IMG/VR virus record: IMGVR_UViG_3300031134_000466 | From: a virus | Lineage: Duplodnaviria; Heunggongvirae; Uroviricota; Caudoviricetes | Direction: 5' to 3' (one strand) | Length of the DNA: 30,889 nt | Shown: one piece after another, positions 6,678-28,928 of the stretch | How positions within the stretch are numbered: position 1 is the first letter of the stretch | Layout of the letters: each line of letters starts with the position of its first letter | The notes under the pieces: model-generated | Database searches by the model: none | What the model saw: the letters and a program-made list of their open reading frames with translations, nothing else | Told to the model about the DNA's origin: nothing | Translations under genes and position numbers: made by a program

Positions 6678-6685
6678 GTTAGAGA
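6678..6685 (+). promoter_or_regulatory. GTTAGRNA-N6-ATG leaderless motif
   Basis: GTTAGAGA-tagcgt-ATG(6692); 12-bp CGTTAGAGATAG identical to 11191-11202. Confidence 0.55.
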
Positions 6686-6691
6686 TAGCGT

Positions 6692-8852: not shown

Positions 8853-8871
8853 AGAGATAACAACAAAACAT

Positions 8872-9000: not shown

Positions 9001-9008
9001 TCAAAATA

Positions 9009-9054: not shown

Positions 9055-9057
9055 CTC

Positions 9058-9086
9058 TTGTCTGACCAGCACTTTAATGATAGAAT
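9058..9086 (+). promoter_or_regulatory. sigmaA-type promoter with no downstream ORF
   Basis: TTGTCT-N17-TAGAAT with TG extended -10. Confidence 0.6.
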
Positions 9087-11173: not shown

Positions 11174-11191
11174 GAAACATGTCATGCTATC

Positions 11192-11199
11192 GTTAGAGA
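11192..11199 (+). promoter_or_regulatory. GTTAGRNA-N6-ATG leaderless motif
   Basis: GTTAGAGA-tagatt-ATG(11206). Confidence 0.55.
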
Positions 11200-11205
11200 T
11201 AGATT

Positions 11206-12111
11206 ATGACTACTACAACAAACAGATGCCGAGCTAAGAACCCTGAAACTTGCTGGAAACATGGTACAGGTTTAGGTTTTGATGCTCACCGTGAAATTCG
11301 TGAGTACGTGAAGTACCCTCTCCAGCATTCAAATAAAGCGATTTTCACCACAGCTTTGAAAACTTATGACAGCACTCAGATCGCTTCAGTTGTCATGGCT
11401 TACGCAAATAAAACTCCCAGCATCAACGCAGCCAGGGTAAAGAAAGCTTTACTTCTTGCAGCTGATCTACACAAAACAGACACAAGAGCTAACCGTGCCT
11501 ACCATGAGCGCACTCCTTACATCGAACACCCTCTTCGTAACACGCTAAGAATCATTCGATACGGATGCAATGATGAAGCAACTTTGATTGGTTCATTACT
11601 CCACGACACAGTGGAAGACCATCCTTTCGAGATTGCCCGTGAATACGCTAAAGAAGAACCACGTGATGAAGCTCATGCTCGTGAGATTTCTTACCGTTAC
11701 ATCGAAAAGAACTTCGGTAAAAATACAGCTCAAATGGTTGAAGGTATGTCAAACCCTATCAGCGAAGACCGTTACATGCCGGCAGCACAGAAAAATGCAG
11801 TGTATCGTGACCATGTAATCAAAGCTATCAAAAACCCTCGTGTAGCTATTGGTAAAATCAGCGACTTCACCGACAATGCTTTGTCTCTTCACCACACTGA
11901 AGCAGGGATGTCAGCAGTGTCATTGTACAAAAAATCAACCAAATATCTTGGAGTGATTGACGAACTTACTCATAGAGTAAAACAAGGTTACGTCAACAAC
12001 GACCTACCAATTTCTGAAATTGGCTACAAGAATATTCTGAACCAGTTGACTGAAGGTAAAACAAAACTTCTGGATATCCAACGCCGTTACGCTCCTGAGA
12101 AAGCAGCTTGA
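11206..12111 (+). CDS. RelA/SpoT-type HD hydrolase (small alarmone hydrolase-like) with N-terminal Cys/His tag
   Basis: R....TPYIEHP, LLHDTVED, KISDFTDN motifs; N-terminus CRAKNPETCWKHG. Confidence 0.8.
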   Translation: MTTTTNRCRAKNPETCWKHGTGLGFDAHREIREYVKYPLQHSNKAIFTTALKTYDSTQIASVVMAYANKTPSINAARVKKALLLAADLHKTDTRANRAYHERTPYIEHPLRNTLRIIRYGCNDEATLIGSLLHDTVEDHPFEIAREYAKEEPRDEAHAREISYRYIEKNFGKNTAQMVEGMSNPISEDRYMPAAQKNAVYRDHVIKAIKNPRVAIGKISDFTDNALSLHHTEAGMSAVSLYKKSTKYLGVIDELTHRVKQGYVNNDLPISEIGYKNILNQLTEGKTKLLDIQRRYAPEKAA

Positions 12112-12335
12112 TGTTTCTCCTTCATTCAGCAGGAGGCAGCGTTCTTGAAGAGTTCATAGAAATAGCAACAGACCCAGCTCATCTTCTATTCGAACTCGCA
12201 TTCTCAGTTGTTTTTGATATTTTGATTGTTTCAGTCATATGGGGTTTCATTATCAAGAAGATAATCATCCCTCGTGTCAAACGAGATGTGCATCGTGAAA
12301 TTGATGAAGAACACGGCATAGCTGAACACGATTAG
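12108..12335 (+). CDS. Small membrane protein
   Basis: Overlaps the HD gene stop; DPAH motif, one or two TM helices, His-rich tail. Confidence 0.6.
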   Translation: MMFLLHSAGGSVLEEFIEIATDPAHLLFELAFSVVFDILIVSVIWGFIIKKIIIPRVKRDVHREIDEEHGIAEHD

Positions 12336-12360
12336 AAACGATTTCATTTTCTGATAATGC

Positions 12361-12366
12361 CCGATA
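12361..12366 (+). promoter_or_regulatory. CCGATA promoter motif
   Basis: CCGATAatATATAAG, 35 nt upstream of the pilin-like ATG. Confidence 0.5.
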
Positions 12367-12401
12367 ATATATAAGACACATAACCTTTTATCAGAAACTA
12401 T

Positions 12402-12803
12402 ATGATGAATCTTTTCAAATCTTCAAAAGGTGCAGTTGACCTTCCTTCTATTATTGTGGGAATCATCGTAGTGGGTGTCCTTGCTGGAATCACTTCTGTA
12501 ACAGTGTTAGGTATTATTCCTTGGGCTCAAGATAATTCAGCAAAGCAGGCTTTGACTTCTTTATCCACTGCTCAAAATTCATATAAGCAGGTGTATGACA
12601 TTTACGGTACTCAAGCACAGCTTGTTGAAAAGAAGTTGTTAGCAGCAAACGACAAAACCTGCAGTATAGTTGCGACTAACGGACTTACCTACTCTTCAGC
12701 ATCTAAATCCACCACAGGTAAAATGTTTGCCAGTGACTCCGCTACTCTAAAACCGCGTCAAGTAGCGGTTGGAGAAACAACCTGCTTCGGTGTTTTCAAA
12801 TAA
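12402..12803 (+). CDS. Type IV pilin-like protein
   Basis: Basic leader ending in KG followed by a long hydrophobic helix (AVDLPSIIVGIIVVGVLAGI...IPWAQD) and two Cys in the head domain; lacks the canonical Glu+5. Confidence 0.6.
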   Translation: MMNLFKSSKGAVDLPSIIVGIIVVGVLAGITSVTVLGIIPWAQDNSAKQALTSLSTAQNSYKQVYDIYGTQAQLVEKKLLAANDKTCSIVATNGLTYSSASKSTTGKMFASDSATLKPRQVAVGETTCFGVFK

Positions 12804-12805
12804 AG

Positions 12806-12835
12806 TTGACATCCATCGGTAAAGCATGGTACGAT
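12806..12835 (+). promoter_or_regulatory. sigmaA-type promoter upstream of the RNA ligase
   Basis: TTGACA-N18-TACGAT with TG extension. Confidence 0.75.
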
Positions 12836-12947
12836 AAGACCATGCTGAACTACTAATCTTACTTCTAATGACATAAACCTCATCAGGTGTCGAGTTAACT
12901 CCACCTGAGTGCAGGTAACCATTCTATTTAAGAAAGTAAGTACCCTG

Positions 12948-13556
12948 GTGGAACAATACCCATCTATTGATAAGATTATTCGCAATACCCACATTTACGC
13001 ATATGACAAGTTAGATGGTTCTAACATCCGTGCTGAATGGAATCGCAAGACAGGCTTCTCAAAGTTTGGTTCGCGTCGTCAACTAATCGACACATCCAAC
13101 CCGTTACTGGGAGAAGCTATTCCTTTGATTCAGAAAAAATACACTGAAGTTCTGGATGAAATCTTCCGTAAACAGAAGTATCAGAAAGCAACAGCTTTCT
13201 TTGAATTCTATGGAGAACACAGCTTTGCTGGATATCATGAAGATGAGCCTCACGATGTAACCCTTTTTGATGTTCATGTGTATAAGCAAGGCATGCTTCC
13301 TCCGAAAGATTTCAACAAAATCTTCAAGTATGTAGATACTCCTGAACTGTTGTTTGAAGGTAAGCCTTCCCAGGAGTTCATCTCCGCTGTGAAAACAGGT
13401 TCGCTGGAAGGTATGACTTTCGAAGGAGTAGTTTGCAAAGGTGGTTACGATAACCGTAACCGTCTTGCTTCTTTCAAAGTCAAAAACCTGGCATGGTTAG
13501 ATAAGCTGAAGAACAGGTTCATTGATGATGAACAAATGTTTAACAAATTAGCTTGA
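12948..13556 (+). CDS. RNA ligase, Rnl2-like nucleotidyltransferase domain
   Basis: Motif I KLDGSN, III FEFYG, IIIa LFDV, IV EGVV, V KVK. Start GTG 12948 (MEQYPSI) preferred over the track start 12909. Confidence 0.8.
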   Translation: MEQYPSIDKIIRNTHIYAYDKLDGSNIRAEWNRKTGFSKFGSRRQLIDTSNPLLGEAIPLIQKKYTEVLDEIFRKQKYQKATAFFEFYGEHSFAGYHEDEPHDVTLFDVHVYKQGMLPPKDFNKIFKYVDTPELLFEGKPSQEFISAVKTGSLEGMTFEGVVCKGGYDNRNRLASFKVKNLAWLDKLKNRFIDDEQMFNKLA

Positions 13557-13582
13557 CATCAATATTGATACAAGAGTATAGT
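13553..13582 (+). promoter_or_regulatory. sigmaA-type promoter with palindromic spacer
   Basis: TTGACA-N18-TATAGT; 12-bp palindrome ATCAATATTGAT at 13558-13569. Confidence 0.75.
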
Positions 13583-13634
13583 GTGAACTGTATTCAAGAT
13601 TTGGTTTCTATCCATTTGACGAAAGAAAAACATT

Positions 13635-13976
13635 ATGCCTAAGTTCCAGTTCCGCCCAGTGCTTCCTGTCATCACGGTTAGCACTGTAAAGCAGGATGAC
13701 CTGAAGGAAATTGCTAGCAACCTTCACACCTTCGCAGGGGTGAATCCTCAGGATGTGACTAAGGGCAAGCTGAAGAAGCAAGGGTTTGTTGTTGTTGATG
13801 GTGACCAGCGTGATGGTTACGAAACACGAGTTATTGTTGAAGTAGGTGACTTCCTGGTTGTTTCCAATAACGGAGTTCAGGCTATTGCTAAGGACGCCCG
13901 CATCCTTGATGGTGACTTCACAGGTCTCCCTGCTGAACTGTTTACTCCAATTACAGGAACTGCTCTAAACGAGTAA
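13635..13976 (+). CDS. Hypothetical protein
   Basis: 113-aa ORF with SD-like GAAAGAA, its own promoter and terminator. Confidence 0.75.
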   Translation: MPKFQFRPVLPVITVSTVKQDDLKEIASNLHTFAGVNPQDVTKGKLKKQGFVVVDGDQRDGYETRVIVEVGDFLVVSNNGVQAIAKDARILDGDFTGLPAELFTPITGTALNE

Positions 13977-13986
13977 AAAGTACCAG

Positions 13987-14022
13987 AGTGTGGCCACCTG
14001 ACATGTTCCAGGTGGCCACACT
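13987..14022 (+). terminator. Intrinsic terminator
   Basis: AGTGTGGCCACCTG-N8-CAGGTGGCCACACT followed by TATTT. Confidence 0.75.
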
Positions 14023-14029
14023 TATTTAA

Positions 14030-14042
14030 CCGATAGATATAA
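14030..14042 (+). promoter_or_regulatory. CCGATA-N2-TATAA promoter motif
   Basis: CCGATAgaTATAA starting 37 nt before ATG 14067; same spacing as at 22223. Confidence 0.6.
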
Positions 14043-14066
14043 GGGACATAGAGTGAGGATAATTAG

Positions 14067-15506
14067 ATGTGTAGAAAATTAGAAGACGGTGGACGCCGTT
14101 GCAACTCAGACAATGCTTTCGGTATTCACGTGAGAAATCTGCAAGCCCAGAAGCAGTACCATGCCAAGCAAGGTAACACTGATCGTGTTGCCATCATTAC
14201 TGATGAGATGGAGAAACTTCGAGAGAAGAAAGCTCATTTGACTGCTGATGGTGGTAAAATCCGTGCCTATTCCATGGAGCTCACAGAGAACGCTCAACGT
14301 GTCTTGAATCAGTTGCGTGAAGATGGATATGAACCGTACGTTGTAGGTGGAAGTGTTCGTGATGCATTGCTGGGTCTTGACTCCAAAGACGTTGACATCG
14401 AAGTGTACAAAGCCACACCTGAGGAAGTTGTTGCTTCTTTGAGTAAAATTGGTCAAGTTGACGAAGTAGGTAAATCTTTTGGTGTGTTGAAAATTCAAAT
14501 CGGAGGAGAAGACTTTGATGTCTCTCTTCCTCGTAAAGATTCCAAAGTTGGTGATGGGCATAGAGGCTTCACCACTGAACTGCTTCCAGAACTTTCAATG
14601 TATGAAGCAACAGCACGTCGTGATTTCACCATCAATGCTTTGATGTATGACAACCAGCTTGGATACATTATCGATAAGCATGAAGGTCTTGAAGACTTAG
14701 ACAAAAAGCAACTTCGTCACATCTCTGATGCGTTTGATGAAGACCCTTTGCGTGTTCTTCGTGGAGTTCAGATGGCTTCTCGTTTCGACATGGAATTGCA
14801 TCCTGACACTGTTGTAAAAGCTCAGACCTTACAGCCACAGTTCCAGGCATTAGCTAAAGAGCGTGTTCAAACTGAGTTTGAGAAACTTTACTCGAAAGGT
14901 AAAGCCCCTCACAAAGCTTTCCAGCTGTTGAAGTCTACTGGCTGGGACACCAACTTTAGTGGATTAGCCGACGCTAATGACGAAAAACTGGGTCAGAATC
15001 TACAAAGAACTCAATCGTTAGCAGATGATGGCACAATTCCTAAGAGCAAATATGCTTACGTCTTGTCAGCAAACATTGCTTCACACTTGAATGACAATGA
15101 TGCTAAGAGTTTTCTAAGCTACACAACAATCGGGGATGATGCTAAGAACGGCTCGTACAATCTTTCTCGTTTGCAGCTTCCTGAGAATGAAGACAAAGCA
15201 ACTATGAGACATTGGGCTAAGTCTTTGACTCGCCATAACACCGTTCAGGATTGGGTATACCTTGCTAAATCTCGTGGTGAGACTGAGAAAGCTGAACGTA
15301 TTCAAAACACTGCTCAGGCTTTAGGTCTTCTTGACGGACCTGAACCTGATTTAGTGAAAGGTGAAGACTTGATGGCGTTATTCCCTGGCCGTCGTCCAGG
15401 TCCTTGGATGAGAATTGCTTTGGATGAATCCCGAGCTGCTCAATATGCGGATGGTTTCCGTACCCGTGAATCAGGTTTGGCTTGGATTAAGAAAAACTTG
15501 GTGTAA
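14067..15506 (+). CDS. cca: Class II tRNA nucleotidyltransferase (CCA-adding enzyme family) with N-terminal Cys tag
   Basis: VGGSVRDALLG..SKDVDIEV, RRDFTINAL, DPLRVLR, ERVQTEFEK; extra N-terminal ~70 aa beginning MCRKLEDGGRRC. Confidence 0.85.
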   Translation: MCRKLEDGGRRCNSDNAFGIHVRNLQAQKQYHAKQGNTDRVAIITDEMEKLREKKAHLTADGGKIRAYSMELTENAQRVLNQLREDGYEPYVVGGSVRDALLGLDSKDVDIEVYKATPEEVVASLSKIGQVDEVGKSFGVLKIQIGGEDFDVSLPRKDSKVGDGHRGFTTELLPELSMYEATARRDFTINALMYDNQLGYIIDKHEGLEDLDKKQLRHISDAFDEDPLRVLRGVQMASRFDMELHPDTVVKAQTLQPQFQALAKERVQTEFEKLYSKGKAPHKAFQLLKSTGWDTNFSGLADANDEKLGQNLQRTQSLADDGTIPKSKYAYVLSANIASHLNDNDAKSFLSYTTIGDDAKNGSYNLSRLQLPENEDKATMRHWAKSLTRHNTVQDWVYLAKSRGETEKAERIQNTAQALGLLDGPEPDLVKGEDLMALFPGRRPGPWMRIALDESRAAQYADGFRTRESGLAWIKKNLV

Positions 15507-15510
15507 CAAC

Positions 15511-15557
15511 AAACGAAGAAGGTCACCTCTTGTTGATGGAGGTGACCTTCTTCGTTT
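15511..15557 (+). terminator. Intrinsic terminator
   Basis: 19-bp arms AAACGAAGAAGGTCACCTC / GAGGTGACCTTCTTCGTTT. Confidence 0.8.
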
Positions 15558-15610
15558 CATCTGTGACGAACAAACAGGTGTTTCTCAGGAAGAAATGGTA
15601 GAGTGGGTTC

Positions 15611-15886
15611 ATGAATACCTCAAAAGACAAGCTCAACACCATGATGGAAGATGCTCTCCTGCTTCTGACCTTCTATGACAAAACAGATGACAGTCCTTTG
15701 GATGATGAAACTCGCTCTTTGATGGCTCCTTTGTTTACAATGCAGACTGCCGGCGGTGGAGGACTCGTTCTGACCTTCCTTCTCATGCAGGAATATGCGG
15801 CAGCAGCAGATATGACGACAGAGGAAGTTGTTGAAGTCCTTCGAGGCCGTCTGTTTGGGTTGCTGGAGAACCTTTCCAAGGACTAA
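15611..15886 (+). CDS. Hypothetical acidic helical protein (leaderless)
   Basis: TGG-TAGAGT-N6-ATG signature; 91 aa. Confidence 0.65.
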   Translation: MNTSKDKLNTMMEDALLLLTFYDKTDDSPLDDETRSLMAPLFTMQTAGGGGLVLTFLLMQEYAAAADMTTEEVVEVLRGRLFGLLENLSKD

Positions 15887-15931
15887 CCCTTGCATGTGTC
15901 CGATAGCTTCTCACAAGCAAAAAGGACACCA

Positions 15932-16573
15932 ATGTTAGACGACAGGCTAAAACTGTACACCCCTAAAGAAGTCAGAGAAATGCTGGCTTCTGATCGTAGA
16001 CTGTATGGAACTCCATACCCATTTCCTCATCCCCGAGCAAAAATCACTGCTGATGACGACGGGAAGATGAAAGGACTAATAACAGAGCATGCTGTTGCCA
16101 ATTTGCTCAACCTGTTGATCTTTGACTATAAAGACTTATATGTTTTTCATTCAATCGGAAACTACGGGGATGAAGATGGAGAAACAGACAACATTTTGAT
16201 CTACCAGAACACGCTTATCATCATTGAAGCCAAATCTTTATCCAATTTTGATTCAGTATCAATTGATACTGATGGGAAAATGTATGGCCGCAGGGGTAAG
16301 AAGAAAATAGCTTTAGGTGGTCACAACAATCTCGTCAAGAAAGTATCCGCATTTCGTGAAAGATACCCTTTCATGAAAGTTTATGGTTTCTATGTAGTAC
16401 GTCAAGCTCAAAAGACAGGTAGCTCTTATTCAGGTTTGTATGTGTCTACGTTAGAAAAGATACTCAACGAAACAAGTCTTGTCTTGGATAACGCAAAGAC
16501 ACCAACAAGCTCTACGGCTGTCTTGCTAAAAGAAACGATGGATCACTGTATCCGACATGAAGTAGTTAACTGA
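15932..16573 (+). CDS. NERD-like PD-(D/E)XK nuclease domain protein
   Basis: TEHAVANLL...YVFHSI...ETDNILIYQNTLIIIEAKS; ATG 15932 with AAGGA SD preferred over track start 15890; CCGATA at 15900-15905. Confidence 0.7.
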   Translation: MLDDRLKLYTPKEVREMLASDRRLYGTPYPFPHPRAKITADDDGKMKGLITEHAVANLLNLLIFDYKDLYVFHSIGNYGDEDGETDNILIYQNTLIIIEAKSLSNFDSVSIDTDGKMYGRRGKKKIALGGHNNLVKKVSAFRERYPFMKVYGFYVVRQAQKTGSSYSGLYVSTLEKILNETSLVLDNAKTPTSSTAVLLKETMDHCIRHEVVN

Positions 16574-16635
16574 AACAAATCACAAAATGCTGTTACAGTA
16601 CACAGTTGTAACGGTAAAAGAAAAAGGAAACGAAT

Positions 16636-17121
16636 ATGCTGGTAGATGCTCTCTTAGGCAAGGACAATGAAGCAGGTCTTGCTGGGGTTTCTTTTATGAA
16701 AGCCTACTGCGATCCGAACAAAAAACTTGAACGAATGGTTGATGTTCTGGGTGTCATGTCTGTTGAAGAACTAATCAAAGGTCTGGTGTTTGTTTCAGGC
16801 GTGCTGTCCACCCTGATTACAGGTGATAGCAACGCGAAGAGAATGTATGGTGTACTTCGAGCTAACCTTGTATCACCTGAAGGTAACCTTTCAGGAACAG
16901 AGACTGAACTCATGAACCTTCTTGACGCTTCTGAAGACAGCACTCCAGGGAAGCTTTTCCTGAAGTTGTACAGTCTAACTGAGCCAGTTGAAATGCTGGG
17001 GATGTTAGCTGCTCTGAACTTTACTCTGATGAAAAACCCTGTTTTTGAGTCGACTCCCATGGAGACATTAGAATCTCTTCGTAACAGCCTACTTGATGAC
17101 TACATCAACAAAAAACAGTGA
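16636..17121 (+). CDS. Hypothetical protein
   Basis: 161-aa ORF with AAAGGA SD and TGT-TACAGT extended -10 upstream. Confidence 0.7.
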   Translation: MLVDALLGKDNEAGLAGVSFMKAYCDPNKKLERMVDVLGVMSVEELIKGLVFVSGVLSTLITGDSNAKRMYGVLRANLVSPEGNLSGTETELMNLLDASEDSTPGKLFLKLYSLTEPVEMLGMLAALNFTLMKNPVFESTPMETLESLRNSLLDDYINKKQ

Positions 17122-17130
17122 CGTTTTTCA

Positions 17131-17138
17131 GTTAGGAA
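17131..17138 (+). promoter_or_regulatory. GTTAGRNA-N6-ATG leaderless motif
   Basis: GTTAGGAA-cactcc-ATG(17145). Confidence 0.45.
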
Positions 17139-17144
17139 CACTCC

Positions 17145-17945
17145 ATGAAGAATGTCCGCTGTCAAGCCCGCACTCCAGGGCACTGCCGCGACCCACGTTG
17201 TCCTGAGAAAAATCATCTAAAAGAAATCTTCGACAAGGCTTTGTTGGATGAAGACTATCAGACAATGTTTGCGGTGAAAGAGGAGATGGATCGTTTCAAG
17301 CCAATCGGGGTTTACCCTGCTTCCAACGCAGAAGAATGGGACCAGTTAGTCCTGTCAGACGACACTACAAATGAACAAATAACTGTAGGAATTACTCCTG
17401 AGAAAACATCTCATCAGTACGACCTGAAAACAGTTCCATCTTTCTCATCCTACTCAGATATCCAGAAGTTTTTTACACAAGACCCTAATGTTGTTCTACT
17501 TCTGGGCGCGACTCTATATAATAGCCCTGTTGCTGGCCATACAGTAAAAGAGTTTTATGTCTCACCTGGCTTGAGAGGTCAAGGTGTGGGTGGATGGATT
17601 ATGGGCATCCTAACAAAGCATGCAGATGATAATAACAGCATGCTTTTTCTCACTCCAACTTCGGCTGGAGATAAGAAGATAGACACTCGACATCCGCAGT
17701 ATGAAACTAAAGCTTTAGCTCATAGAGAGCGACTTACGCGTTTCTACCAAAAGAACGGTTTCCAGCAAAATCCATTCTGGATTCCAATTGGATGGAAGGA
17801 TGAGTTGACCCAAAAACCTTGGCAGTTGGATGAGCAAGAGATGAGCAAATTTACTAGCCAAGGCAAAACTTATTTAGGTTCACCTCAGACGCCTCAGCTG
17901 GTTAGACTTCCTCACGGTAAGTGGCCTGAAAGCTTCCAAAAGTAG
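17145..17945 (+). CDS. GNAT-family acetyltransferase with N-terminal Cys tag (paralog of 27941..28780)
   Basis: Acetyl-CoA motif VSPGLRGQGVG, RLTRFYQKNGF; N-terminus CQARTPGHCRDPRCPE. Confidence 0.8.
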   Translation: MKNVRCQARTPGHCRDPRCPEKNHLKEIFDKALLDEDYQTMFAVKEEMDRFKPIGVYPASNAEEWDQLVLSDDTTNEQITVGITPEKTSHQYDLKTVPSFSSYSDIQKFFTQDPNVVLLLGATLYNSPVAGHTVKEFYVSPGLRGQGVGGWIMGILTKHADDNNSMLFLTPTSAGDKKIDTRHPQYETKALAHRERLTRFYQKNGFQQNPFWIPIGWKDELTQKPWQLDEQEMSKFTSQGKTYLGSPQTPQLVRLPHGKWPESFQK

Positions 17946-18091
17946 CCAGAGAGGCTCTTAGCGGCCATCTGAGGAGGTTTTACTGCTTCTGCTTCCACCG
18001 AGCCATTCCTACTGCTTGAAGCGATTACAAGGCGTTCTACAGAGGTAGGAATAAAATGAGTTAGGATGAGATGTCTTGATATAATAAGGGT

Positions 18092-19099
18092 ATGGAAAAA
18101 GTTGCTGATGTTCACAGAGATGCTGTCTTAGCATCTTTGCCTGAAATGGCAGTTCTTCCAGAAGACCTTCAAACTGAGATTACTCAAATCTTAGCATCTT
18201 ACGATAGTTTTTACTCTTCTGTAATCGCAAAACTGTCAGACTTGACAAAGAAGAATTGGACTGCCACTCGTTATTCGAGCAGTCATGGCATATCTGCTGC
18301 AGCTGTTGGAATCAATCACGAAATCAACGAACTGCGAGCTCACGCAGCCACAACTAAGATTTTCCCCACAGACATTCTCACTGTAGAACACTATGGAGGA
18401 GCTAACTCCCAGAAGAATGACCTTGAAGTTTTCGTCAAAGGCGAAACAGAGCCTTTCTTTGCTGTTGAAGTAAAGTCATACCAGGCTCAGTTGGGTCAAA
18501 TCATTCTAACTACAGAGGGCAAGCCTCGAACAGATAGCTTACTGGAAAACTATATCAGTCAAATTTCTCAGTCTCGTTTAGTGGTCACTCCTGAAGTAGA
18601 AAATTTTGTAACCAGAGCTTGGCTGGCTAAGAAATTTGTCAACCAGAAAATTGCCTTTGTTGCTGTACCCTACAGAGAAAAAGTGACATTGTTCAGCCTT
18701 TTTGACTTACATTTCCTCAGAGATGTTTCTTTGACTATTCAAAAAGTGAGGCTGAAAAAGTCAGGTTCCAGCAATGTTCCATTGAGAGACAAAGTAGAGG
18801 TGTCTCAAATTTTGGCAGCTTCTATTCCTTCTTTAGTCGGAGTTGTTGATTATGACTTGGATAAGCTCACAGTAACACTGACTCGGACACAGTATGACAA
18901 GATGGCATTGTCAGAAAAATATCTTTCTGACACATGGTTTTTAGGTCGTAAAAGTAGCAACACTGCAGACAATCCTGAACACATCATGCTAACAGTCAAA
19001 AAGCTATCATCCGCTGATTTGCCTAACGCTCATACCCAGCATGTGATGATGTCTTTGAGATACAAACCAACTCCAATTAAACCGATAGCTAACCCATGA
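18092..19099 (+). CDS. Putative type II restriction endonuclease (PD-(D/E)XK)
   Basis: KNDLEV...AVEVKSY catalytic-like motif; ATGA-coupled to a C5-MTase; leaderless TGA-TATAAT-N6-ATG. Confidence 0.55.
   Translation: MEKVADVHRDAVLASLPEMAVLPEDLQTEITQILASYDSFYSSVIAKLSDLTKKNWTATRYSSSHGISAAAVGINHEINELRAHAATTKIFPTDILTVEHYGGANSQKNDLEVFVKGETEPFFAVEVKSYQAQLGQIILTTEGKPRTDSLLENYISQISQSRLVVTPEVENFVTRAWLAKKFVNQKIAFVAVPYREKVTLFSLFDLHFLRDVSLTIQKVRLKKSGSSNVPLRDKVEVSQILAASIPSLVGVVDYDLDKLTVTLTRTQYDKMALSEKYLSDTWFLGRKSSNTADNPEHIMLTVKKLSSADLPNAHTQHVMMSLRYKPTPIKPIANP
19082..19087 (+). promoter_or_regulatory. CCGATA motif inside the endonuclease 3' end, leaderless spacing to the MTase
   Basis: CCGATA-N8-ATG(19096). 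Confidence 0.5.
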
Positions 19100-21506: not shown

Positions 21507-21589
21507 GAACACTGTATTCATTTAGTTGTCCTGGTTGGTTTTGGTAGTAGTAAACCGATTTCTATGAGGTATACCGAAAAAGGATTGAC

Positions 21590-22189
21590 ATGACTGTTGT
21601 AATTACACCAAACCAATTAGCTGCCAGAGACAATAGAGCTCCCTCGCCTGCTGTAAAAATGGACGGGTCCCAATTTGAGTGGCGTATGTTCTATGATTCA
21701 AACCGTTTAGTTGCTGACTGCGAAACAACAGAAGATGCTTTGGGAGTCCTCATCACTGGATACGCTGCTCTATCTGCTGAGGACAAACTACAAGCTCGAA
21801 TCAATTTAGCTCAGACAGTGCAGCTCAAAGCACGCACCATGATTGCATCTCGCATTACTCCAGAAACAGCAGAGAAGCTGAAAGACTGGGAATGGGAAGT
21901 TCTTACAAGTGCTGGAGATACTTATGGCTGGGGTTTGGGAGAAGGAACATTAGGAACAATCAAGAATGATGAAGTTATTGATTTCTGGTTCTCTGACCTT
22001 CCTCTTGTACTTGTAACCACATCATATGCACCGCATACTGAAATTCCTCGACCAATCTCCAAAGAAGGAGATTATGAAGAGGTCAAGAACCTGATTTGGC
22101 TACGCCCTGAGTACGAGCTTGATTTTCTCCGTTCATTATCTCGTATTGGTTACATTGCTTTCGGAACTGCTCAGAATGTAGTTAACTGA
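21590..22189 (+). CDS. Hypothetical protein
   Basis: 199-aa ORF with AAAGGA SD; near-motif CCGATT at 21555. Confidence 0.75.
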   Translation: MTVVITPNQLAARDNRAPSPAVKMDGSQFEWRMFYDSNRLVADCETTEDALGVLITGYAALSAEDKLQARINLAQTVQLKARTMIASRITPETAEKLKDWEWEVLTSAGDTYGWGLGEGTLGTIKNDEVIDFWFSDLPLVLVTTSYAPHTEIPRPISKEGDYEEVKNLIWLRPEYELDFLRSLSRIGYIAFGTAQNVVN

Positions 22190-22222
22190 ACCATCTGGCA
22201 AAGGACAAAGTAGGGTTTGTCC

Positions 22223-22235
22223 CCGATAGCTATAA
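22223..22235 (+). promoter_or_regulatory. CCGATA-N2-TATAA promoter motif
   Basis: CCGATAgcTATAA starting 37 nt before ATG 22260. Confidence 0.6.
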
Positions 22236-22259
22236 AGAAGAAAATGAGCAAGGGAAAAT

Positions 22260-25200
22260 ATGTGTAATGCAGTTCGTGACGGTGGACGCCGTTGCCCAAT
22301 CCATCAGCACACCAGTATCGCTGGTATTCGTGCAGTCGTAGCCGCCACTGGTCTGCAGCGTCGTCAGGTAGAGAATACCTTCCGCGAACTTCGCAGAGAA
22401 GGAGCGGATATTACAGAAATCTCTCCAGAAGCCCGCCAGCAAGCAATTGACAGCCTCCGGGTTGTTGCTGAAGAAGCTAATGATCTGACCGCGTATGAAC
22501 GTCAGATGAGAATTGCTGACCGTTGGAACGAAGAACCTGACCAGGCTACATCCTATGCTCTAACGCATTTGGTTGAGATTTCCAAAAGAAAAGCCGAAGC
22601 TCTCAAAGCTGAACTACAATCTGTTGCTGACCGCACAGGTTACACTCTTGAAGAAGTTCAAGCTAAGTACTATGAAGAGTATGATGCTGTCCCTACCGGT
22701 AACAACGTAGAAATGCCGGCAGAACACACTGCTGCAGCAACTCAGCGTCAAAGAAGAGCAGGTCTTCCTTATGACCGTTCCTCTGTTGTTGCGTTAGAGC
22801 GTGTACGTACTCTTGTTTCTCCTGATAACCGTCAGGCTCGCATTGAGAACCACGAACCAATCAACAGTACTAACTTAGCTTTTGTCGGTTACCATGAAGG
22901 CCGTTTGGAAGTCTCTTTCCAGCATGAACCAGAAACCTTCTATGCTTACCAGAACGTACCTGAAGCGTTGTATGAACGATTGCGTTCAGCACAGCGTCCA
23001 GGTTCTGTGTACAGCAGAAGCATCAGAGGAAACTCTGAATATACCTATGACAGTCCTGAAGCAGCTGAAGCAGACGGATATGTGTTACGTTGTGCTTCTT
23101 GTGGACAATTCCGAGCTCAGCGACACAACTGCCCAGAAAGAGCAGCTCGAAACAACTTAGCTGCTTTCGGAACTCCTGCAGAGAACATTCAAGAAGCCCT
23201 GGATGCTGGAGTGTCTCCTGAGGTTCCTGAAGCTGCTTTCGTAGTAGAAGACTTAACACGTGTTGATTATGCTCCGTCTGCTTCAGAACAAGAAGTTGCT
23301 GAGTATGTGGCCAGTGCAGACTTCCAGGAGAGACTGCCATTTGGTACAGCATCAACTTCTCAGGCTCCAGACGGAACTATCCGCCATGTCGTGAACTTAG
23401 GTGAAGAATTTACTGAGCGTGAGACATTCAGAGCTCACACTGGCAGTATGCAGAACCGTAGACCTTCTACATTCACCCGCACTTTCTTCGATAGAGAAAA
23501 TCCTACTGCTGAAGAACTTGAGGTAATGATTGAAACTCGTGATGCGTTCAATGCTTTGTCAACTGTGACAACTTTGCATTACATCAACGTAGTCCGAGAC
23601 AATTTGCACCGCGCTGACTTCTCAATGCCTGTTTCTGCAGAATTCAACCGAATTACTTCACCTGATACTGCTAACAGAATGTTGCCATCAAGCACTGTCT
23701 CTGGAACCATCCAGATTGGCCGTTTAGCTGAAGGCGAAACTCTTGAAGACGCTATTATTCGTGAACGCCACCTGAAATGTACTTGTGCTGATTATCAGGA
23801 AAACTACGACTGTGTTCATGTGCGTGCAACTGCCCGTAACCCTTATGTGTTCTTGACCAACCGTAGCCGTCGTTTTGTTGAAGGGGAGCATTACACTTCT
23901 TACATCAACCGTCATTCTGTTGCTGTTCAGGACGAAGAACGTATTCGTAACCGTATGCGTACCGCTGGTGTTGACCGTGCAAGAGCTATCGAGTTAGCTG
24001 AAGAAGAGCGTGCTGAGCAGCAGAGACAACGTGAAGAGCAGGAACGTTACTACCGTGCTTCTCAGGCTGAACGTGAACGAATCAACATGGAACGTGGTTT
24101 GCGTGAAGCTGAAACTTTGCGTACACGAAATGCTACTGTCGTAGCTGCCAGCGATGAGTACCGTACTCGTATGATGGCTCGTTGGGAAGAAGAAGAGCCT
24201 GGTTACACTGGGAACGTCGACGCTTTGTACGAAGACTACCGTGAAACTCTACGTCGCAAGCGTGCTGGTGAAGAGTACATGGATTTCCGTACAGAAAACG
24301 TCACTGATGGTATTTGTGCTGATGAGCCTGGTGCTCGTGCGTTTGGTATCGAACTTGAGTTCGACATTGGAAGTGGTCATAACCGTTCTACATCATTACG
24401 CAAAATTGCTGAAGAACTCTACGAAGCTGGTTTAACTGAAGAGAACTACCAGCAGGAGTACCACTCTGCTCGTGCAAGCGGCTGGGGTGCTTGGTCCTTC
24501 GAAGAAGATTGTACTGTTCATGGTGAGTTGGTTTCACCGATTATGAAGGACACTCCTGAACATTGGAATCAGTTGAAGACAGCTTTGGAGATTATTACTC
24601 GTAACGGTGGGGTTGCTACTACTCGTACTGGTTCTCACGTTCATATTTCTACTGCATCTTACGAGTCTTCTCCTGCGAAGCATCTTGAGCTGTTACGTCA
24701 GGTGAACCAGAATGATGAAATGATGTACCGTTTGGCAACCGACCCTGCACGTGGTAGCCACCGTGGTATGCGTTGGTGTGCACCTAACGTAAACGATACA
24801 AGTGAAACTGTTTCTGCTGATGTGTCAAGTAGTCATAACGTTTTGGGTAGCCATATGTCTCACAGCTATGCTATGAACTTCGAAGGCACCTACTCATCTG
24901 ACTACAGCCGTTCCAACATTGAATTCCGTATGTGGGATGCTACTCTGGATGCTGCCGTGATTCAGCGACAGATTATGGTTTCAGCAGCAATGACTGACCA
25001 GGCTGAACGTAACGTAATCAACAACGGTGAATCAGCTCGTCCGACAGCTTCTCGTTCGCGTATTGGTGCAGCTCGTACAGCTGAGCGTACTTTGTTAGGT
25101 ACAAGTCGTACTCATACACGCGAAACTTTCGAGCAGTCAATGGGTTCAGCTCCTCAGTTCTTTGATGGATTGTTCCGTCGACAGGAAGACCGCCAGAGAG

Positions 25201-25283
25201 TTGCTTCATTGTTTGCTGTTACCAACTGGCAAAACTACAATGACAGTTACGATGATGATGACGATGATGACGGTTACTACTGA
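22260..25283 (+). CDS. Multidomain protein: Cys tag - KTSC - Zn ribbon - SWIM - coiled coil - amidoligase (COOH-NH2 ligase type 2)
   Basis: MCNAVRDGGRRC; KTSC (STNLAFVGY...LEVSF...YAYQNVPEALYERL...PGSVY); CASCGQF...HNCP; SWIM CTC...CVHV; amidoligase RAFGIELEF, GELVSP, GSHVHIS, EFRMWDATL; poly-Asp tail. Confidence 0.8.
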   Translation: MCNAVRDGGRRCPIHQHTSIAGIRAVVAATGLQRRQVENTFRELRREGADITEISPEARQQAIDSLRVVAEEANDLTAYERQMRIADRWNEEPDQATSYALTHLVEISKRKAEALKAELQSVADRTGYTLEEVQAKYYEEYDAVPTGNNVEMPAEHTAAATQRQRRAGLPYDRSSVVALERVRTLVSPDNRQARIENHEPINSTNLAFVGYHEGRLEVSFQHEPETFYAYQNVPEALYERLRSAQRPGSVYSRSIRGNSEYTYDSPEAAEADGYVLRCASCGQFRAQRHNCPERAARNNLAAFGTPAENIQEALDAGVSPEVPEAAFVVEDLTRVDYAPSASEQEVAEYVASADFQERLPFGTASTSQAPDGTIRHVVNLGEEFTERETFRAHTGSMQNRRPSTFTRTFFDRENPTAEELEVMIETRDAFNALSTVTTLHYINVVRDNLHRADFSMPVSAEFNRITSPDTANRMLPSSTVSGTIQIGRLAEGETLEDAIIRERHLKCTCADYQENYDCVHVRATARNPYVFLTNRSRRFVEGEHYTSYINRHSVAVQDEERIRNRMRTAGVDRARAIELAEEERAEQQRQREEQERYYRASQAERERINMERGLREAETLRTRNATVVAASDEYRTRMMARWEEEEPGYTGNVDALYEDYRETLRRKRAGEEYMDFRTENVTDGICADEPGARAFGIELEFDIGSGHNRSTSLRKIAEELYEAGLTEENYQQEYHSARASGWGAWSFEEDCTVHGELVSPIMKDTPEHWNQLKTALEIITRNGGVATTRTGSHVHISTASYESSPAKHLELLRQVNQNDEMMYRLATDPARGSHRGMRWCAPNVNDTSETVSADVSSSHNVLGSHMSHSYAMNFEGTYSSDYSRSNIEFRMWDATLDAAVIQRQIMVSAAMTDQAERNVINNGESARPTASRSRIGAARTAERTLLGTSRTHTRETFEQSMGSAPQFFDGLFRRQEDRQRVASLFAVTNWQNYNDSYDDDDDDDGYY

Positions 25284-25297
25284 GTCTCATAGTTAGT

Positions 25298-25331
25298 AAA
25301 AAGGCCCTGACAAATATGTCAGGGCCTTTTT
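25298..25331. terminator. Bidirectional intrinsic terminator
   Basis: AAAAAGGCCCTGACA-aata-TGTCAGGGCCTTTTT between convergent genes. Confidence 0.85.
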
Positions 25332-25342
25332 GTTTCACTTAT

Positions 25343-25975
25343 TCAACTAAGTAGAGACGTTTCTAAAGCATCTACTGCTTTGTCGTATTCCTCTACATTG
25401 TCATAGTGGTCGTCAGTAATTTGACTTGAAATGAGAAGAGCTTGGAGTCTGTAGCCAACCAAGTCACCAGCTCGCCGGCTGGCAAGACCTGTCAACGCAT
25501 AGTCTTCCTTGGTTGGCTCTCCTGAAGTGCCAATAACAGTGATAGCAGAGTCTACAAGCTCCACTGAAGGCTTTTCTTCTGCTTTTAGGTAAGCTGTGAG
25601 CCATTCGACTGCTCGGCTCTTAAACGCAGCCTGGTGGCTTTTGTACTCTTCACGAGTTGAAAGTTTCCAGAAGAAAACGTCTTCTTTTTCCCAGGTTGTG
25701 ATGTCATTTGCAATGGAAAGTGCGTCGAGGTCGCTAAGGAAGTCTTCCCCTGTAATGATGACGATTTGGTCCAGAGTGCCTTGCACTTCTGCTTTGACTG
25801 GCCAGATGTATTTCATCTCAGTTGGCTCTACTCGGGTTACCTCTTCTTCTTGCTTTTGTCGGTAGAACACTCCTTCATTATCTTTGTAGAAGGGAAGTGT
25901 TTCCGTGTAGAACCCCTGGTTCCCATACTGGTCGCCAAGGAAGCCATAAAGTGTGTATAAAGTTGCGTCAGTCAT
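25343..25975 (-). CDS. Hypothetical protein (leaderless)
   Basis: TGC-TAAACT-N6-ATG on - strand; 210 aa, acidic. Confidence 0.75.
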   Translation of the reverse strand: MTDATLYTLYGFLGDQYGNQGFYTETLPFYKDNEGVFYRQKQEEEVTRVEPTEMKYIWPVKAEVQGTLDQIVIITGEDFLSDLDALSIANDITTWEKEDVFFWKLSTREEYKSHQAAFKSRAVEWLTAYLKAEEKPSVELVDSAITVIGTSGEPTKEDYALTGLASRRAGDLVGYRLQALLISSQITDDHYDNVEEYDKAVDALETSLLS

Positions 25976-26155
25976 GGAAGAAGTTTAGCATGAACATCAA
26001 ATGGTAAGTATTTTGGGAAGGATCAAACTATTTGTACCATTTCAACATTTTTTCGTCAATTTGACTAAAAAGTTGCCGATACTGTTTAATAGTGGTAAGA
26101 TAAAAACATAACGGGGTTACTTGAACGCCCGCTCTAAAACAACAAGGAGAATATC

Positions 26156-26782
26156 ATGCTGTATCTCACAGCTACCAATTCCGACCAGTGCGAAGGTCGA
26201 GGATGGCAAGTCCCGACGCTCATCACGCGAGAACGCAACGTAGCACTCTGGTTTGCATACACCACAAAGCCTTTCTACGACCGTGTACAGGAGGCTTACC
26301 AGCTGAACTTCGGTGACCTGTACCGAACGAAGACAGATTTCATCAAAACCTACCCAAAAACTCAAGTTGCAGATGAAACTCTCAATGCAGCATGGGAAGA
26401 TTACATGACTGTTGCTCTTCAGGATAATGAAACTCTTCCTGCTCCGACGCTCAATGTTGAAACTGTTTACCTTGTAGGTCATACGATGGACGCCAGCATT
26501 GGTGGAACTGTCTACCATAACAAATTCTTTCCCACCATGATTGTTGAGACCTATGCTCAGGCAAAAACAGCTGCACTTCAGCTTGCCACTGACGGTCAGG
26601 ACTACCATGTTATTGCCGTCGATACAGACACGAACTACGGCACAGGAATGTACGACAGAGAACGTATCTTCAGCACAACAAAACCCGAGTTAACGACTAT
26701 AGCAGTCGAAGCTTTCAACACAAACATCTTGGACAAAGCAGCTTTGGTTGCAGAGTTCACAACAACAGGAGCAAACCGATGA
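26156..26782 (+). CDS. Hypothetical protein
   Basis: 208 aa, AAGGAGA SD; GCCGATAC at 26075-26082 upstream; first gene of a three-gene run. Confidence 0.75.
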   Translation: MLYLTATNSDQCEGRGWQVPTLITRERNVALWFAYTTKPFYDRVQEAYQLNFGDLYRTKTDFIKTYPKTQVADETLNAAWEDYMTVALQDNETLPAPTLNVETVYLVGHTMDASIGGTVYHNKFFPTMIVETYAQAKTAALQLATDGQDYHVIAVDTDTNYGTGMYDRERIFSTTKPELTTIAVEAFNTNILDKAALVAEFTTTGANR

Positions 26783-26991
26783 CGAACACACCCCGTAACG
26801 AGTTCACCCGCGACAATCTGGCAACAATTCTGGAGCTGATGGATAAAGCCAAAACAGGACTGCCAGGAGTAACTTCACTCAAAGTCGAATTTTCGCCTAC
26901 TGTTTCAGGTCGTGTCGAAGTCAAAGGCGACCACTGCATTTTCATCCCAACTCATCATGAACCTGTAGACCCAATGGGCTACGGACGATAA
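26779..26991 (+). CDS. Hypothetical small protein
   Basis: ATGA overlap with the previous gene, AGGAG SD; 70 aa. Confidence 0.7.
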   Translation: MTNTPRNEFTRDNLATILELMDKAKTGLPGVTSLKVEFSPTVSGRVEVKGDHCIFIPTHHEPVDPMGYGR

Positions 26992-27000
26992 GGAATAATC

Positions 27001-27588
27001 ATGACTAAAGCATTACTGATTGTAGATGTCCAGAACGACTTCATCGAAGGTGGAAGCCTTGGAGTAACAGGTGGTGAAAGTGTTGCACTGAACACAGCTG
27101 AGTTGCTTATCAATACCCACTATGATGCAGTAATCACTACACAGGACTGGCACATCGAGCCAGGTAACCACTGGGCAGAAACACCTGATTATGTAGACAC
27201 CTGGCCTGTCCACTGTGCAGCTAACACCAATGGTTCTGCTGTTCGAGCTGAGCTGGCAGCAGCTGTTCTTGCTAAAGTACAGGAGCAGTCTGACCTACGA
27301 TACCTTCGTATTGTCAAGGGTGAGTATGAAGCTGCTTATTCAGGGTTCGAAGGGCGAGACTTCATGGGTGGCACTAAGAAAGTCGAAGAGCTTATTCGAG
27401 ATTTGGATGTCACTGAGATTGATGTCGTAGGTCTTGCCACTGACCACTGCGTTCGAGCTACAGTCCTGGATGCTTTGACAGCAGGGTTCGCTGTGAACGT
27501 GTTGACTGACTACGTTGCTGGTGTTGACCCTGAACGTAGTGCGGCTGCTCTGGTCGAAATGGAAAAAGCCGGCGCCACACTCATCTAA
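27001..27588 (+). CDS. pncA: Nicotinamidase/pyrazinamidase
   Basis: IVDVQNDF, TQDWH, WPVHC, KG...AYSGF, GLATDHCV (catalytic Asp-Lys-Cys triad and metal His residues). Confidence 0.92.
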   Translation: MTKALLIVDVQNDFIEGGSLGVTGGESVALNTAELLINTHYDAVITTQDWHIEPGNHWAETPDYVDTWPVHCAANTNGSAVRAELAAAVLAKVQEQSDLRYLRIVKGEYEAAYSGFEGRDFMGGTKKVEELIRDLDVTEIDVVGLATDHCVRATVLDALTAGFAVNVLTDYVAGVDPERSAAALVEMEKAGATLI

Positions 27589-27635
27589 AAATAGTAATGG
27601 CACCCTCTATAACCAGGAGGGTGCCATTACTATTT
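27589..27635. terminator. Bidirectional intrinsic terminator
   Basis: 19-bp arms AAATAGTAATGGCACCCTC / GAGGGTGCCATTACTATTT. Confidence 0.85.
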
Positions 27636-27643
27636 AGTGCTTA

Positions 27644-27871
27644 TCAAGCCCAAGGAACACGGTTGGTCGAGCGAATAGCGAAAGAACCGGCAGCAATAAT
27701 TCCGGAGCAAAGAGCAGCTCCACCAAGGGCAAGATGTAACCCGTAGTCACCGCGTGCGTCATAAGCCATAATTGCCGCAAAAGTAGTGATGGCTGCAAAG
27801 ACGATCACTGGAGTAGCGAAAAGTGCAACCTTGAAGAAAATGGGCCAGAATTTTGATTTTGATTTGCTCAT
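27644..27871 (-). CDS. Small two-TM membrane protein (leaderless)
   Basis: TGT-TAGACT-N6-ATG on - strand; two hydrophobic helices. Confidence 0.7.
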   Translation of the reverse strand: MSKSKSKFWPIFFKVALFATPVIVFAAITTFAAIMAYDARGDYGLHLALGGAALCSGIIAAGSFAIRSTNRVPWA

Positions 27872-27926
27872 ACGTGAAGTCTAACAACTTTTAGGGAAAG
27901 TCCATATAAATGAAGTTTTCCGAGTT

Positions 27927-27934
27927 GTTAGATA
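27927..27934 (+). promoter_or_regulatory. GTTAGRNA-N6-ATG leaderless motif
   Basis: GTTAGATA-ttgagc-ATG(27941). Confidence 0.5.
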
Positions 27935-27940
27935 TTGAGC

Positions 27941-28780
27941 ATGGTTACGATCAAAAAATGTCAATCTAAAAAGCATTCCTTCGGAGGTTGCGGTGATCCT
28001 CGCTGTCCTGAAGGTTTGTCTATTCAAAATGCAATGGAGCATGCGTTAAAAGATCAAGATGTAATGGCATATATAGAAGCTCGTCAGCTCAAAGACTTGA
28101 AACCGAACATGCTTTTCATCGATAACGGTATGGCTGCTTTATTTGTGAACCATAGTGGCGAAGAACAAACAGATACTCTCAGGTTCAAAGCGAATCGTCC
28201 AGAAGTGGTTGAATATATCAACTCTATAGACCGTACAACTGTTCCTTCGTTTAAAACTTTGCAAGACCTGGAGAAACACGTCAGCGATACTTACAGACCG
28301 TATGCTTCTTTTAGCCTTCGTCAATATGAAGGGTATGGCCCTAATAAGGATATCACCCGAGTAAGTGTTGCAGACATGAGAGTTGATGCTGACCTACGTG
28401 GAGCAGGATTAGGCTCATATTTCCGTAAGATGCTGCTGAAACATGCTGATGAGAAAGGCTATGTCGTATCAGGCACTCCTACCAACAGCGGTGATGGTAC
28501 GTTGGAGCATACAGATGAAAATCATGAAGAGTACGTTCAACATGCAATTAGCCACAGAGCTCGATTAGAGCATTTCTATTTACGTAATGGATATGAGAAA
28601 AATTACGGAACACTTCCAGTGGTGCATGGTCAAGAAGATTATCTGACTAAGAAGAAACTGGAAACTAATCAGCCATGGCTTGACCGGTTCAACCATTACG
28701 GACATGAACTTCTCTTTGATGCTGGCTCATTCATTCGTTGGCCGAAGAATCAAATACCAGCATCACTACTGGCTAAATAA
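27941..28780 (+). CDS. GNAT-family acetyltransferase with N-terminal Cys tag (paralog of 17145..17945)
   Basis: VDADLRGAGLG, RLEHFYLRNGY; N-terminus CQSKKHSFGGCGDPRCPE. ATG 27941 preferred over track TTG 27935. Confidence 0.8.
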   Translation: MVTIKKCQSKKHSFGGCGDPRCPEGLSIQNAMEHALKDQDVMAYIEARQLKDLKPNMLFIDNGMAALFVNHSGEEQTDTLRFKANRPEVVEYINSIDRTTVPSFKTLQDLEKHVSDTYRPYASFSLRQYEGYGPNKDITRVSVADMRVDADLRGAGLGSYFRKMLLKHADEKGYVVSGTPTNSGDGTLEHTDENHEEYVQHAISHRARLEHFYLRNGYEKNYGTLPVVHGQEDYLTKKKLETNQPWLDRFNHYGHELLFDAGSFIRWPKNQIPASLLAK

Positions 28781-28928
28781 TACCATCAAGAATAGTAAAA
28801 TACCTGGTCAGGAGTGCTATTCTGATAGTGTTTTACTCAGCCGATATCTGATTTGCTGCTATAATTTTATAACAAAAGCTTTTCAACAAGTACTATACAT
28901 AACTAATTTGACACGAAACTAACTACTA

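Follow-up and report, generated by a model that had tools for sequence, protein, structure and literature searches.

A short N-terminal cysteine hook on unrelated enzymes of large actinobacterial mobile genomes: a possible recruitment handle

The locus described here raises the question of why enzymes with unrelated catalytic bodies should begin with the same kind of short, cysteine-rich peptide. It lies in a 30,889-nt stretch of DNA from a Caudoviricetes virus record of IMG/VR (IMGVR_UViG_3300031134_000466), which is referred to at its full length as the window, has a GC content of 44% and carries its genes mostly on the plus strand. Five of its proteins start with such a peptide, termed the hook, which exists in forms that begin directly with Met-Cys (MC hooks, type A) and in forms in which the first cysteine lies further inside (type B). 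The present analysis suggests that the hook is a portable module that has been added to several catalytic families and that it may serve as a docking handle. The five proteins and their hooks are as follows:

11206..12111, plus strand: small alarmone hydrolase (SAH)-type HD hydrolase, 301 aa, with an N-terminal hook module
11227..11265, plus strand: class-1 hook of the SAH protein, C8-x7-C16-x2-H19-G20, CRAKNPETCWKHG
14067..15506, plus strand: class II CCA-adding-type nucleotidyltransferase, 479 aa
14067..14264, plus strand: added N-terminal module of the CCA enzyme (residues 1-66), an MC hook followed by a helical hairpin (residues 17-62)
14070-14102, plus strand: MC hook of the CCA enzyme, M-C2-x4-DGGRRC12
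17145..17945, plus strand: GNAT-like protein 1 (GNAT1), 266 aa
17160-17207, plus strand: hook of GNAT1, C6-x7-C14-x4-C19 (C-x7-C-x-DPRCPE, residues 6-21)
22260..25283, plus strand: KTSC / SWIM-like / Amidoligase_2 giant, 1007 aa
22263-22304, plus strand: MC hook of the giant, M-C2-x4-DGGRRC12-x2-H15 (residues 2-15)
27941..28780, plus strand: GNAT-like protein 2 (GNAT2), a paralogue of GNAT1
27959-28012, plus strand: hook of GNAT2, C7-x9-C17-x4-C22 (residues 7-24)

The initial annotation of this DNA had described cysteine-rich peptides at the starts of these five proteins, and all five were found there. Cysteine is rare in the proteins of the window (58 of 8771 residues, 0.66%), and the pattern C-x7-9-C fell within the first 25 residues of 5 of the 33 genes, where 0.055 were expected; none of 3000 shuffles reached five, and the pattern occurred internally only twice in 7583 positions. 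Moreover, the tag cysteines were the sole cysteines of the CCA enzyme, GNAT1 and GNAT2. The two GNAT-like proteins were paralogous over their full length, tag included (27% identity, E = 4e-29), so that the window holds four independent fusions, in agreement with the four unrelated enzyme families proposed at the outset.

The catalytic bodies were assigned from domain matches and modelled folds. The body of the 14067 gene is, by its head domain (Pfam PolyA_pol, E = 3.6e-22) and predicted fold (Foldseek matches to 6qxn and 1miv, TMt 0.75-0.82, with 0.82 for 6qxn), a class II CCA-adding-type enzyme; its AlphaFold2 model had a mean predicted local distance difference test score (pLDDT) of 91.8 overall and above 90 in the hairpin. 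The body of the 11206 gene gave partial matches to HD_4 and TIGR00691 and contained an invariant H133 and D134, and its model (pLDDT 93.9 overall, 82 in hook residues 11-20) best matched the small alarmone hydrolase RelH (7qoc, TMt 0.73; RelH and Mesh1 together, 0.73-0.75), which indicates that it is a small-alarmone-hydrolase fold with an HD motif. GNAT1 scored 25.9 bits against Acetyltransf_7 (cut-off 27), and GNAT2 matched no GNAT profile. Beyond its hook, the 1007-aa giant combines KTSC and Amidoligase_2 domains with two further cysteine motifs, C-x2-C-x9-C at residues 278-291 and the SWIM-like C-x-C-x8-C-x-H at residues 507-520, and its poly-Asp tail ends in GYY.

Conservation within the hook-bearing families pointed to selection on the peptide itself. 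Among the 120 relatives of the CCA enzyme that were retrieved, 106 started with Met-Cys, and in an alignment of 95 sequences with identities down to 36%, M1, C2 and C12 were invariant and R11 nearly so. In the alignment of hook-bearing SAH relatives (A2), C8 and C16 were invariant and A10, H19 and G20 were at least 90% conserved, and the close relatives all had the form C-[RQ]-A-K-[ND]-P-x-x-C-[W]-[KR]-H-G. Furthermore, in ten genes from six contigs the codons for the Cys, Ala, Pro, His and Gly residues of the class-1 hook varied synonymously while the residues themselves were fixed, which argues that selection acts on the peptide. In an 880-kb relative of the window (contig L002, CCA enzyme 72% identical), the orthologues retained all tags, including a GNAT tag whose start had been overlooked by the gene caller; the GNAT1 orthologue retained both its hook and the upstream motif described below, and the giant's hook was kept in the orthologues of L002 and of a further contig, L005. 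The search for GNAT1 homologues returned two relatives only, and the GNAT tag was thus traced solely in close relatives. In both type A tags of the window, DGGRRC is encoded by the same 18 nt (14085-14102 and 22278-22295), and the corresponding pair in L002 has its own, different set of synonymous codon choices in common. These shared codons hint at exchange of a 5' cassette, promoter plus tag, or at gene conversion.

The hook was lacking in cellular members of the same catalytic families. Cellular CCA-type homologues from GTDB species genomes (Aeromicrobium, Leifsonia, Actinotalea and others) aligned only from residue 65-70 on and had no MC start, and the start of the SAH homologues of approximately 250 aa from Microbacteriaceae (Glaciihabitans, Rathayibacter, Frondihabitans) aligned at residue 45-50 of the window protein, again with no hook. 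These data bear out the claim that cellular CCA and SAH enzymes do not carry such leaders, and for these two families they speak against the objection that the tags are ordinary N-termini of cellular homologues. The sequence comparisons thus supported the view that the tags are additions to the CCA and SAH catalytic families.

To what else is the hook attached? A profile 18 columns long, made from the class-1 hook alignment A2, was run against 1.84 billion representative proteins with a threshold of E <= 1e-3. The profile matched 32 proteins, in almost all of them within residues 3-24; in one protein the match started at residue 18 and in another (P0271) it was internal (residues 144-158). That nearly every match was N-terminal is evidence against random matching. 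When the hook was removed, the 32 proteins fell into approximately 22 unrelated groups, so that the earlier notion of a portable tag held well beyond the window. The Pfam domains fused to the hook were ArdC-N with MPTase-PolyVal, Zeta_toxin/AAA_33, ADPrib_exo_Tox, a weak GNAT and DUF3263, and most of the matched proteins belonged to no recognised family.

All hook versions had the form C-x7-9-C followed by x2-His, or by x4-Cys in the GNATs. The SAH family alone was found in four states, namely with the class-1 hook, with an MC...PGPRCSSHA module (MCYALPGPRCSSHA in P0220, whose catalytic body is 41% identical), with a YHxNxxTG...CxAxxxxCPxxHG module (P0218, P0219 and others) and, in cellular genomes, with no hook at all. 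The initial annotation had treated types A and B as two separate tags. Since at least three hook classes replace one another on the SAH family and both types fit C-x7-9-C-x2-H, that division was not upheld, and types A and B look like sequence classes of one C...C-x2-H module family; the class-1 profile gave only 0-23 bits on the other classes, the motifs being too short for profiles to link A and B statistically. MC-type hooks were also found on an HD-domain protein of a 63%-GC, 812-kb contig (L098) and on two proteins of contig L100. The L098 protein (330 aa) was considered as an SAH orthologue and rejected, as it had no significant similarity to protein P0001. Among 401 Actinomycetes genomes, the type A profile gave two weak matches, of which one was convincing, a 268-aa protein without a family that starts with MC...GGRRC, and the hook is, on this search, rare in the Actinomycetes chromosomes covered. 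In L002, a 493-aa hook gene (1324-2805, minus strand) that is absent from the corresponding place in the window starts with MTTTRECRAINKAACRYHG and is preceded by GTTAGAAATAGAAC.

No model of Pfam, NCBIfam or PHROGs matched the tag regions, and a feature search of the ESM Atlas gave no usable match. A full-text literature search with the hook motif strings returned nothing relevant, and a survey of polyvalent proteins (PMC5512222) does not contain the word cysteine and does not mention the hook. The hook is accordingly a mini-domain that has no model in these family libraries and no description in the papers searched, and it is tightly linked to a promoter signal. The signals in the window are as follows:

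11192..11205, plus strand: GTTAG-N9 motif GTTAGAGATAGATT, directly 5' of the SAH ATG
17131..17144, plus strand: GTTAG-N9 motif GTTAGGAACACTCC, 5' of GNAT1
27927..27940, plus strand: GTTAG-N9 motif GTTAGATATTGAGC, 5' of GNAT2
6678..6691, plus strand: GTTAG-N9 motif 5' of the hookless Pnkp gene (6692-7711; kinase and HAD phosphatase)
27872..27885, minus strand: GTTAG-N9 motif 5' of the gene for a 75-aa membrane protein that has no hook (27644-27871, also minus strand)
14030..14042, plus strand: CCGATAG-N-TATAA motif CCGATAGATATAA, starting 37 nt 5' of the CCA enzyme's ATG, with a Shine-Dalgarno-like GAGGA in the leader
22223..22235, plus strand: CCGATAG-N-TATAA motif CCGATAGCTATAA, starting 37 nt 5' of the giant's ATG

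GTTAG before all three type B genes and CCGATA..TATAA 37 nt before both type A start codons, as previously reported, were thus both found. The string GTTAG-N9-ATG occurred 5 times in the window against 0.88 expected, every time at a gene start, and its position places the start of GNAT2 at the ATG at 27941 and not at the TTG at 27935. The window and five other contigs (31-48% GC, one of them a marine TARA scaffold) had 17 gene starts with GTTAG-N9-ATG, of which 13 belonged to hook genes and 2 more to hook-like genes, against 8 hook genes among 124 other starts (Fisher p = 5e-10; the orthologue pairs of the window and L002 are not independent of each other, whereas contigs L099 to L102 are independent). 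The proposal that tagged genes share a start-proximal signal therefore holds across distant genomes. The further proposal that tag type tracks promoter type failed: MC-type hook genes in L100 use GTTAG-N9-ATG, so that the motif is not specific to type B, and CCGATA, with 14 copies in the window against 5 expected, is a general element that also stands before many untagged genes. The GTTAG-N9-ATG genes lacked a Shine-Dalgarno sequence, and the type A genes had ordinary leaders with Shine-Dalgarno-like sequences. The fixed spacing and the missing Shine-Dalgarno sequence suggest leaderless mRNAs, and the GTTAG-type hook genes are probably leaderless. Because most hook genes start 9 nt after GTTAG with no Shine-Dalgarno sequence, promoter and hook behave as a 5' cassette that would define a co-regulated set.

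What, then, might the hook do? The reading favoured here, to which a probability of roughly 40% is given with virion packaging counted separately, is that the hook is a non-catalytic docking or recruitment handle common to co-regulated enzymes. In this scheme, mobile genomes of actinobacteria (phage-like elements of 0.6-1.0 Mb and megaplasmids of Rhodococcus and Kineococcus) would place before unrelated accessory enzymes a short basic peptide, Cys-x7-9-Cys-(x2-His or x4-Cys), usually followed by one or more helices. The peptide is probably a small metal-binding knuckle. The hook genes would be expressed as a co-regulated set from the GTTAG promoter cassette, and the handle would gather enzymes that counter defence or modify the host at a single shared partner or site. 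The enzymes so recruited would include those of tRNA repair, an alarmone hydrolase, acetyltransferases, ADP-ribosyltransferases, ArdC and a zeta kinase, and they might form a non-covalent counterpart of polyvalent proteins, possibly delivered with the incoming DNA. The fused domains belong to types that are deployed by mobile elements against the host early on. ArdC is transmitted with invading DNA (bioRxiv 10.1101/361121), relatives of SAH reverse the pyrophosphorylation of the tRNA CCA end by toxSAS (bioRxiv 10.1101/2021.04.30.441581), and ADP-ribosyltransferase and zincin metallopeptidase domains are listed among those of polyvalent proteins (PMC5512222).

Several observations weigh against this docking handle. 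The conserved potential ligands number two in the CCA family and three in the SAH family, where a zinc site complete in itself would require more, and the hook of the CCA enzyme was modelled at low confidence (pLDDT 49-68). The Pnkp gene shares the GTTAG motif and lacks a hook, so that the regulon is not quite the same set as the tagged genes. The giant elements are phage-like, and no virion genes were seen in any locus examined; neither a hub nor a core protein with this module was seen in those loci. Finally, direct binding of nucleic acids would fit the basic hooks and the many RNA and nucleotide enzymes about as well.

The nucleic-acid explanation is the strongest of the alternatives, and it is regarded as a tentative possibility. 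A basic Cys2-His hook, with or without zinc, would bind tRNA, RNA or DNA and thereby concentrate the enzyme on its substrate, which agrees with a net hook charge of about +2 to +3 and with the fact that the tagged CCA enzyme, SAH, ArdC-N and zeta/AAA_33 kinase act on nucleic acids or nucleotides. However, the hook bears no likeness to the nucleic-acid-binding zinc-finger models of Pfam, none of which matched the hook regions even at E <= 10, and it has too few conserved ligands. Moreover, hooks are also carried by ADP-ribosyltransferases, an amidoligase and many familyless proteins, and a binding domain would not need so strict an N-terminal position.

The genomes in which the hook occurs bear on a second alternative, in which the hook would direct proteins into the capsid so that they are ejected along with the DNA. 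CCA and SAH genes with hooks were met repeatedly on contigs of 0.6-1.0 Mb, which had no close relatives among GTDB genomes, IMG/VR contigs and isolated phages; megablast of positions 11000-29000 of the window against phages gave no match, and tblastn of hook peptides of 45-50 aa against phages gave no match or E >= 1, which is uninformative. The stretch occurs in phyllosphere and plant metagenomes of several studies. A related module of MC hook plus helices (P0220, residues 1-125) matched, from its first residue on, 20 plasmids of Rhodococcus or Kineococcus and none of 50,697 isolated-phage records. One such case is plasmid pRHL3 of R. jostii RHA1 (L109, NC_008271.1, ~298,397-299,536), where an MC-hook frame of ~380 aa that starts with MCKPKPGPRC overlaps by 8 nt the end of an N-formylglutamate amidohydrolase gene and lies ~7 kb from an FtsK/SpoIIIE-domain gene; the frame is absent as one gene from the plasmid's (incomplete) gene table. 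Packaging draws on phage T4, whose diverse anti-defence internal proteins share only an N-terminal capsid-targeting sequence (CTS; PMC3012670), and the hook is likewise N-terminal and stands on like enzymes, such as ADP-ribosyltransferases. Nevertheless, the occurrence of a related MC-hook module on plasmids that have no capsid makes a capsid-only role unlikely and tells against the capsid targeting floated in the initial annotation as a general function. In addition, no match was found in the isolated phages, no conserved protease-site motif was seen by eye behind the hooks, the loci examined contain no virion gene, and the hookless Pnkp has the same promoter. A packaging signal is thus considered unlikely.

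A third explanation involves the following gene:

1227-3722: full-length ClpB/ClpC-type double-AAA+ unfoldase with a Clp_N domain

The cysteine pair might be a redox or metal switch or an N-degron, recognised for example by this ClpC-like unfoldase, that limits the timing of potentially toxic enzymes. The N-terminal position of the motif, the near absence of other cysteines from these proteins, the presence of such an ATPase in the same window and the toxin-like nature of many fused domains are in line with a regulatory or turnover tag. But this evidence is circumstantial, a link between hook and Clp is lacking, and repair enzymes of the CCA type have no obvious need of timed removal, so that this explanation is held to be quite improbable. 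That the conservation lies at the nucleotide level, the peptide being a by-product of a 5' mRNA element for leaderless translation or the true start lying downstream, is very improbable: the GTTAG-N9-ATG genes do lack a Shine-Dalgarno sequence and the type A tags do share their identical 18 nt, but the synonymous sites of the class-1 hook are free and its amino acids fixed, Met and the first Cys are 2 to about 24 residues apart, the hook of P0271 is internal, and the type A genes have ordinary Shine-Dalgarno-like leaders.

A more specific version of the docking handle is doubtful: that the hook is the address label of a new recruitment route, used by giant elements (0.6-1 Mb) and megaplasmids of actinobacteria, in which the tagged enzymes are made from a leaderless promoter cassette of their own, docking to a hub occurs via a metal site completed by the partner and transfer or deployment is linked to the DNA, the whole amounting to a modular polyvalent protein held together non-covalently. 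If a recruitment or delivery label is the true function, the hook together with GTTAG-N9-ATG would be a simple means of listing the accessory "weapon" enzymes, including those of no family, in a little-known group of very large mobile genomes, and there would be a common partner to seek. Even if the hook were a nucleic-acid clamp or a regulatory switch, a widespread mini-domain paired with a promoter could help to predict co-regulated genes in metagenomic contigs.

The remaining features of the window include the following:

12909-13556: RNA ligase
12402-12803: type IV pilin-like gene with an N-terminal hydrophobic helix
19096-20067: C5 cytosine methylase
8841-9065: small open reading frame (ORF) starting with MCYSRDNNKTCRC (MC-x8-C)

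Pnkp (6692-7711), SAH (11206-12111), the RNA ligase (12909-13556) and the CCA-adding-type enzyme (14067-15506) make up a dispersed RNA/tRNA repair kit, of whose four members two, SAH and the CCA enzyme, carry hooks; the kit suggests defence against tRNA-damaging systems of the host. In L002, the place of the pilin-like gene is taken by two paralogues of larger size. Three phyllosphere RNA libraries, where DNA carry-over is possible, contained contigs that were at least 99% identical to the pilin-like gene of the window, and phyllosphere metatranscriptomes covered only short internal pieces of the window. In the segment 18092-21506, a 335-aa gene of no known family overlaps the start of the C5 methylase, which abuts a membrane-like 479-aa gene; since L002 has an N6/N4 methylase in place of the C5 enzyme, the segment looks like a variable modification slot. 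The small ORF at 8841-9065 lies amid minus-strand genes and is probably spurious, as it has no GTTAG motif and no L002 orthologue was seen. Other genes of the window, besides the C5 DNA methylase, include an NlpC/P60 peptidase, and an open-ended ORF of 529 aa at the 3' end has a start that appears GyrB-like by eye.

How does the hook compare with known systems? The CCHC zinc knuckle (C-x2-C-x4-H-x4-C) is a very short motif that needs a metal in order to fold, and so is the zinc hook of Rad50, a CxxC divided between two chains, in which an incomplete set of ligands is completed by the second chain. The hook differs from the CCHC knuckle in its spacing, C-x7-9-C-x2-H, in having two or three conserved ligands in place of four, and in giving no Pfam match at E <= 10. 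Effector-associated domains (EADs), known from bacterial conflict systems, are small, mostly helical terminal adaptor modules on unrelated effectors and have been proposed to recruit these to a common core. They contain no cysteine knuckle; the only match was a sub-threshold one to EAD9 just behind the hook of the 493-aa protein of L002 (16.2 bits, cut-off 25), and no core protein with the module was seen in the loci examined.

The polyvalent proteins and MuF-linked effectors of phages and conjugative elements resemble the hook proteins in that ArdC-N, zincin MPTase and ADP-ribosyltransferase domains are found on mobile elements, and they are thought to act early after DNA entry (PMC5512222). 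In polyvalent proteins, however, 2-15 effector domains are fused in one giant polypeptide, whereas the hook enzymes are separate, each with its small hook, and of the five tagged proteins only the 1007-aa one is multidomain, the others each having a single catalytic domain. The closest parallel in principle is the CTS of the internal proteins and Alt of T4, where a short N-terminal peptide is likewise the only feature common to diverse anti-defence and host-modifying proteins of one mobile genome (PMC3012670). The CTS has no sequence likeness to the hook, contains no cysteine pair and is cut off by the prohead protease, but the hook, too, is a shared N-terminal peptide on unrelated proteins. 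If it proves to be a recruitment or delivery label, it would represent a second, sequence-unrelated case of the principle of one tag on many proteins known from T4, extended to plasmids.

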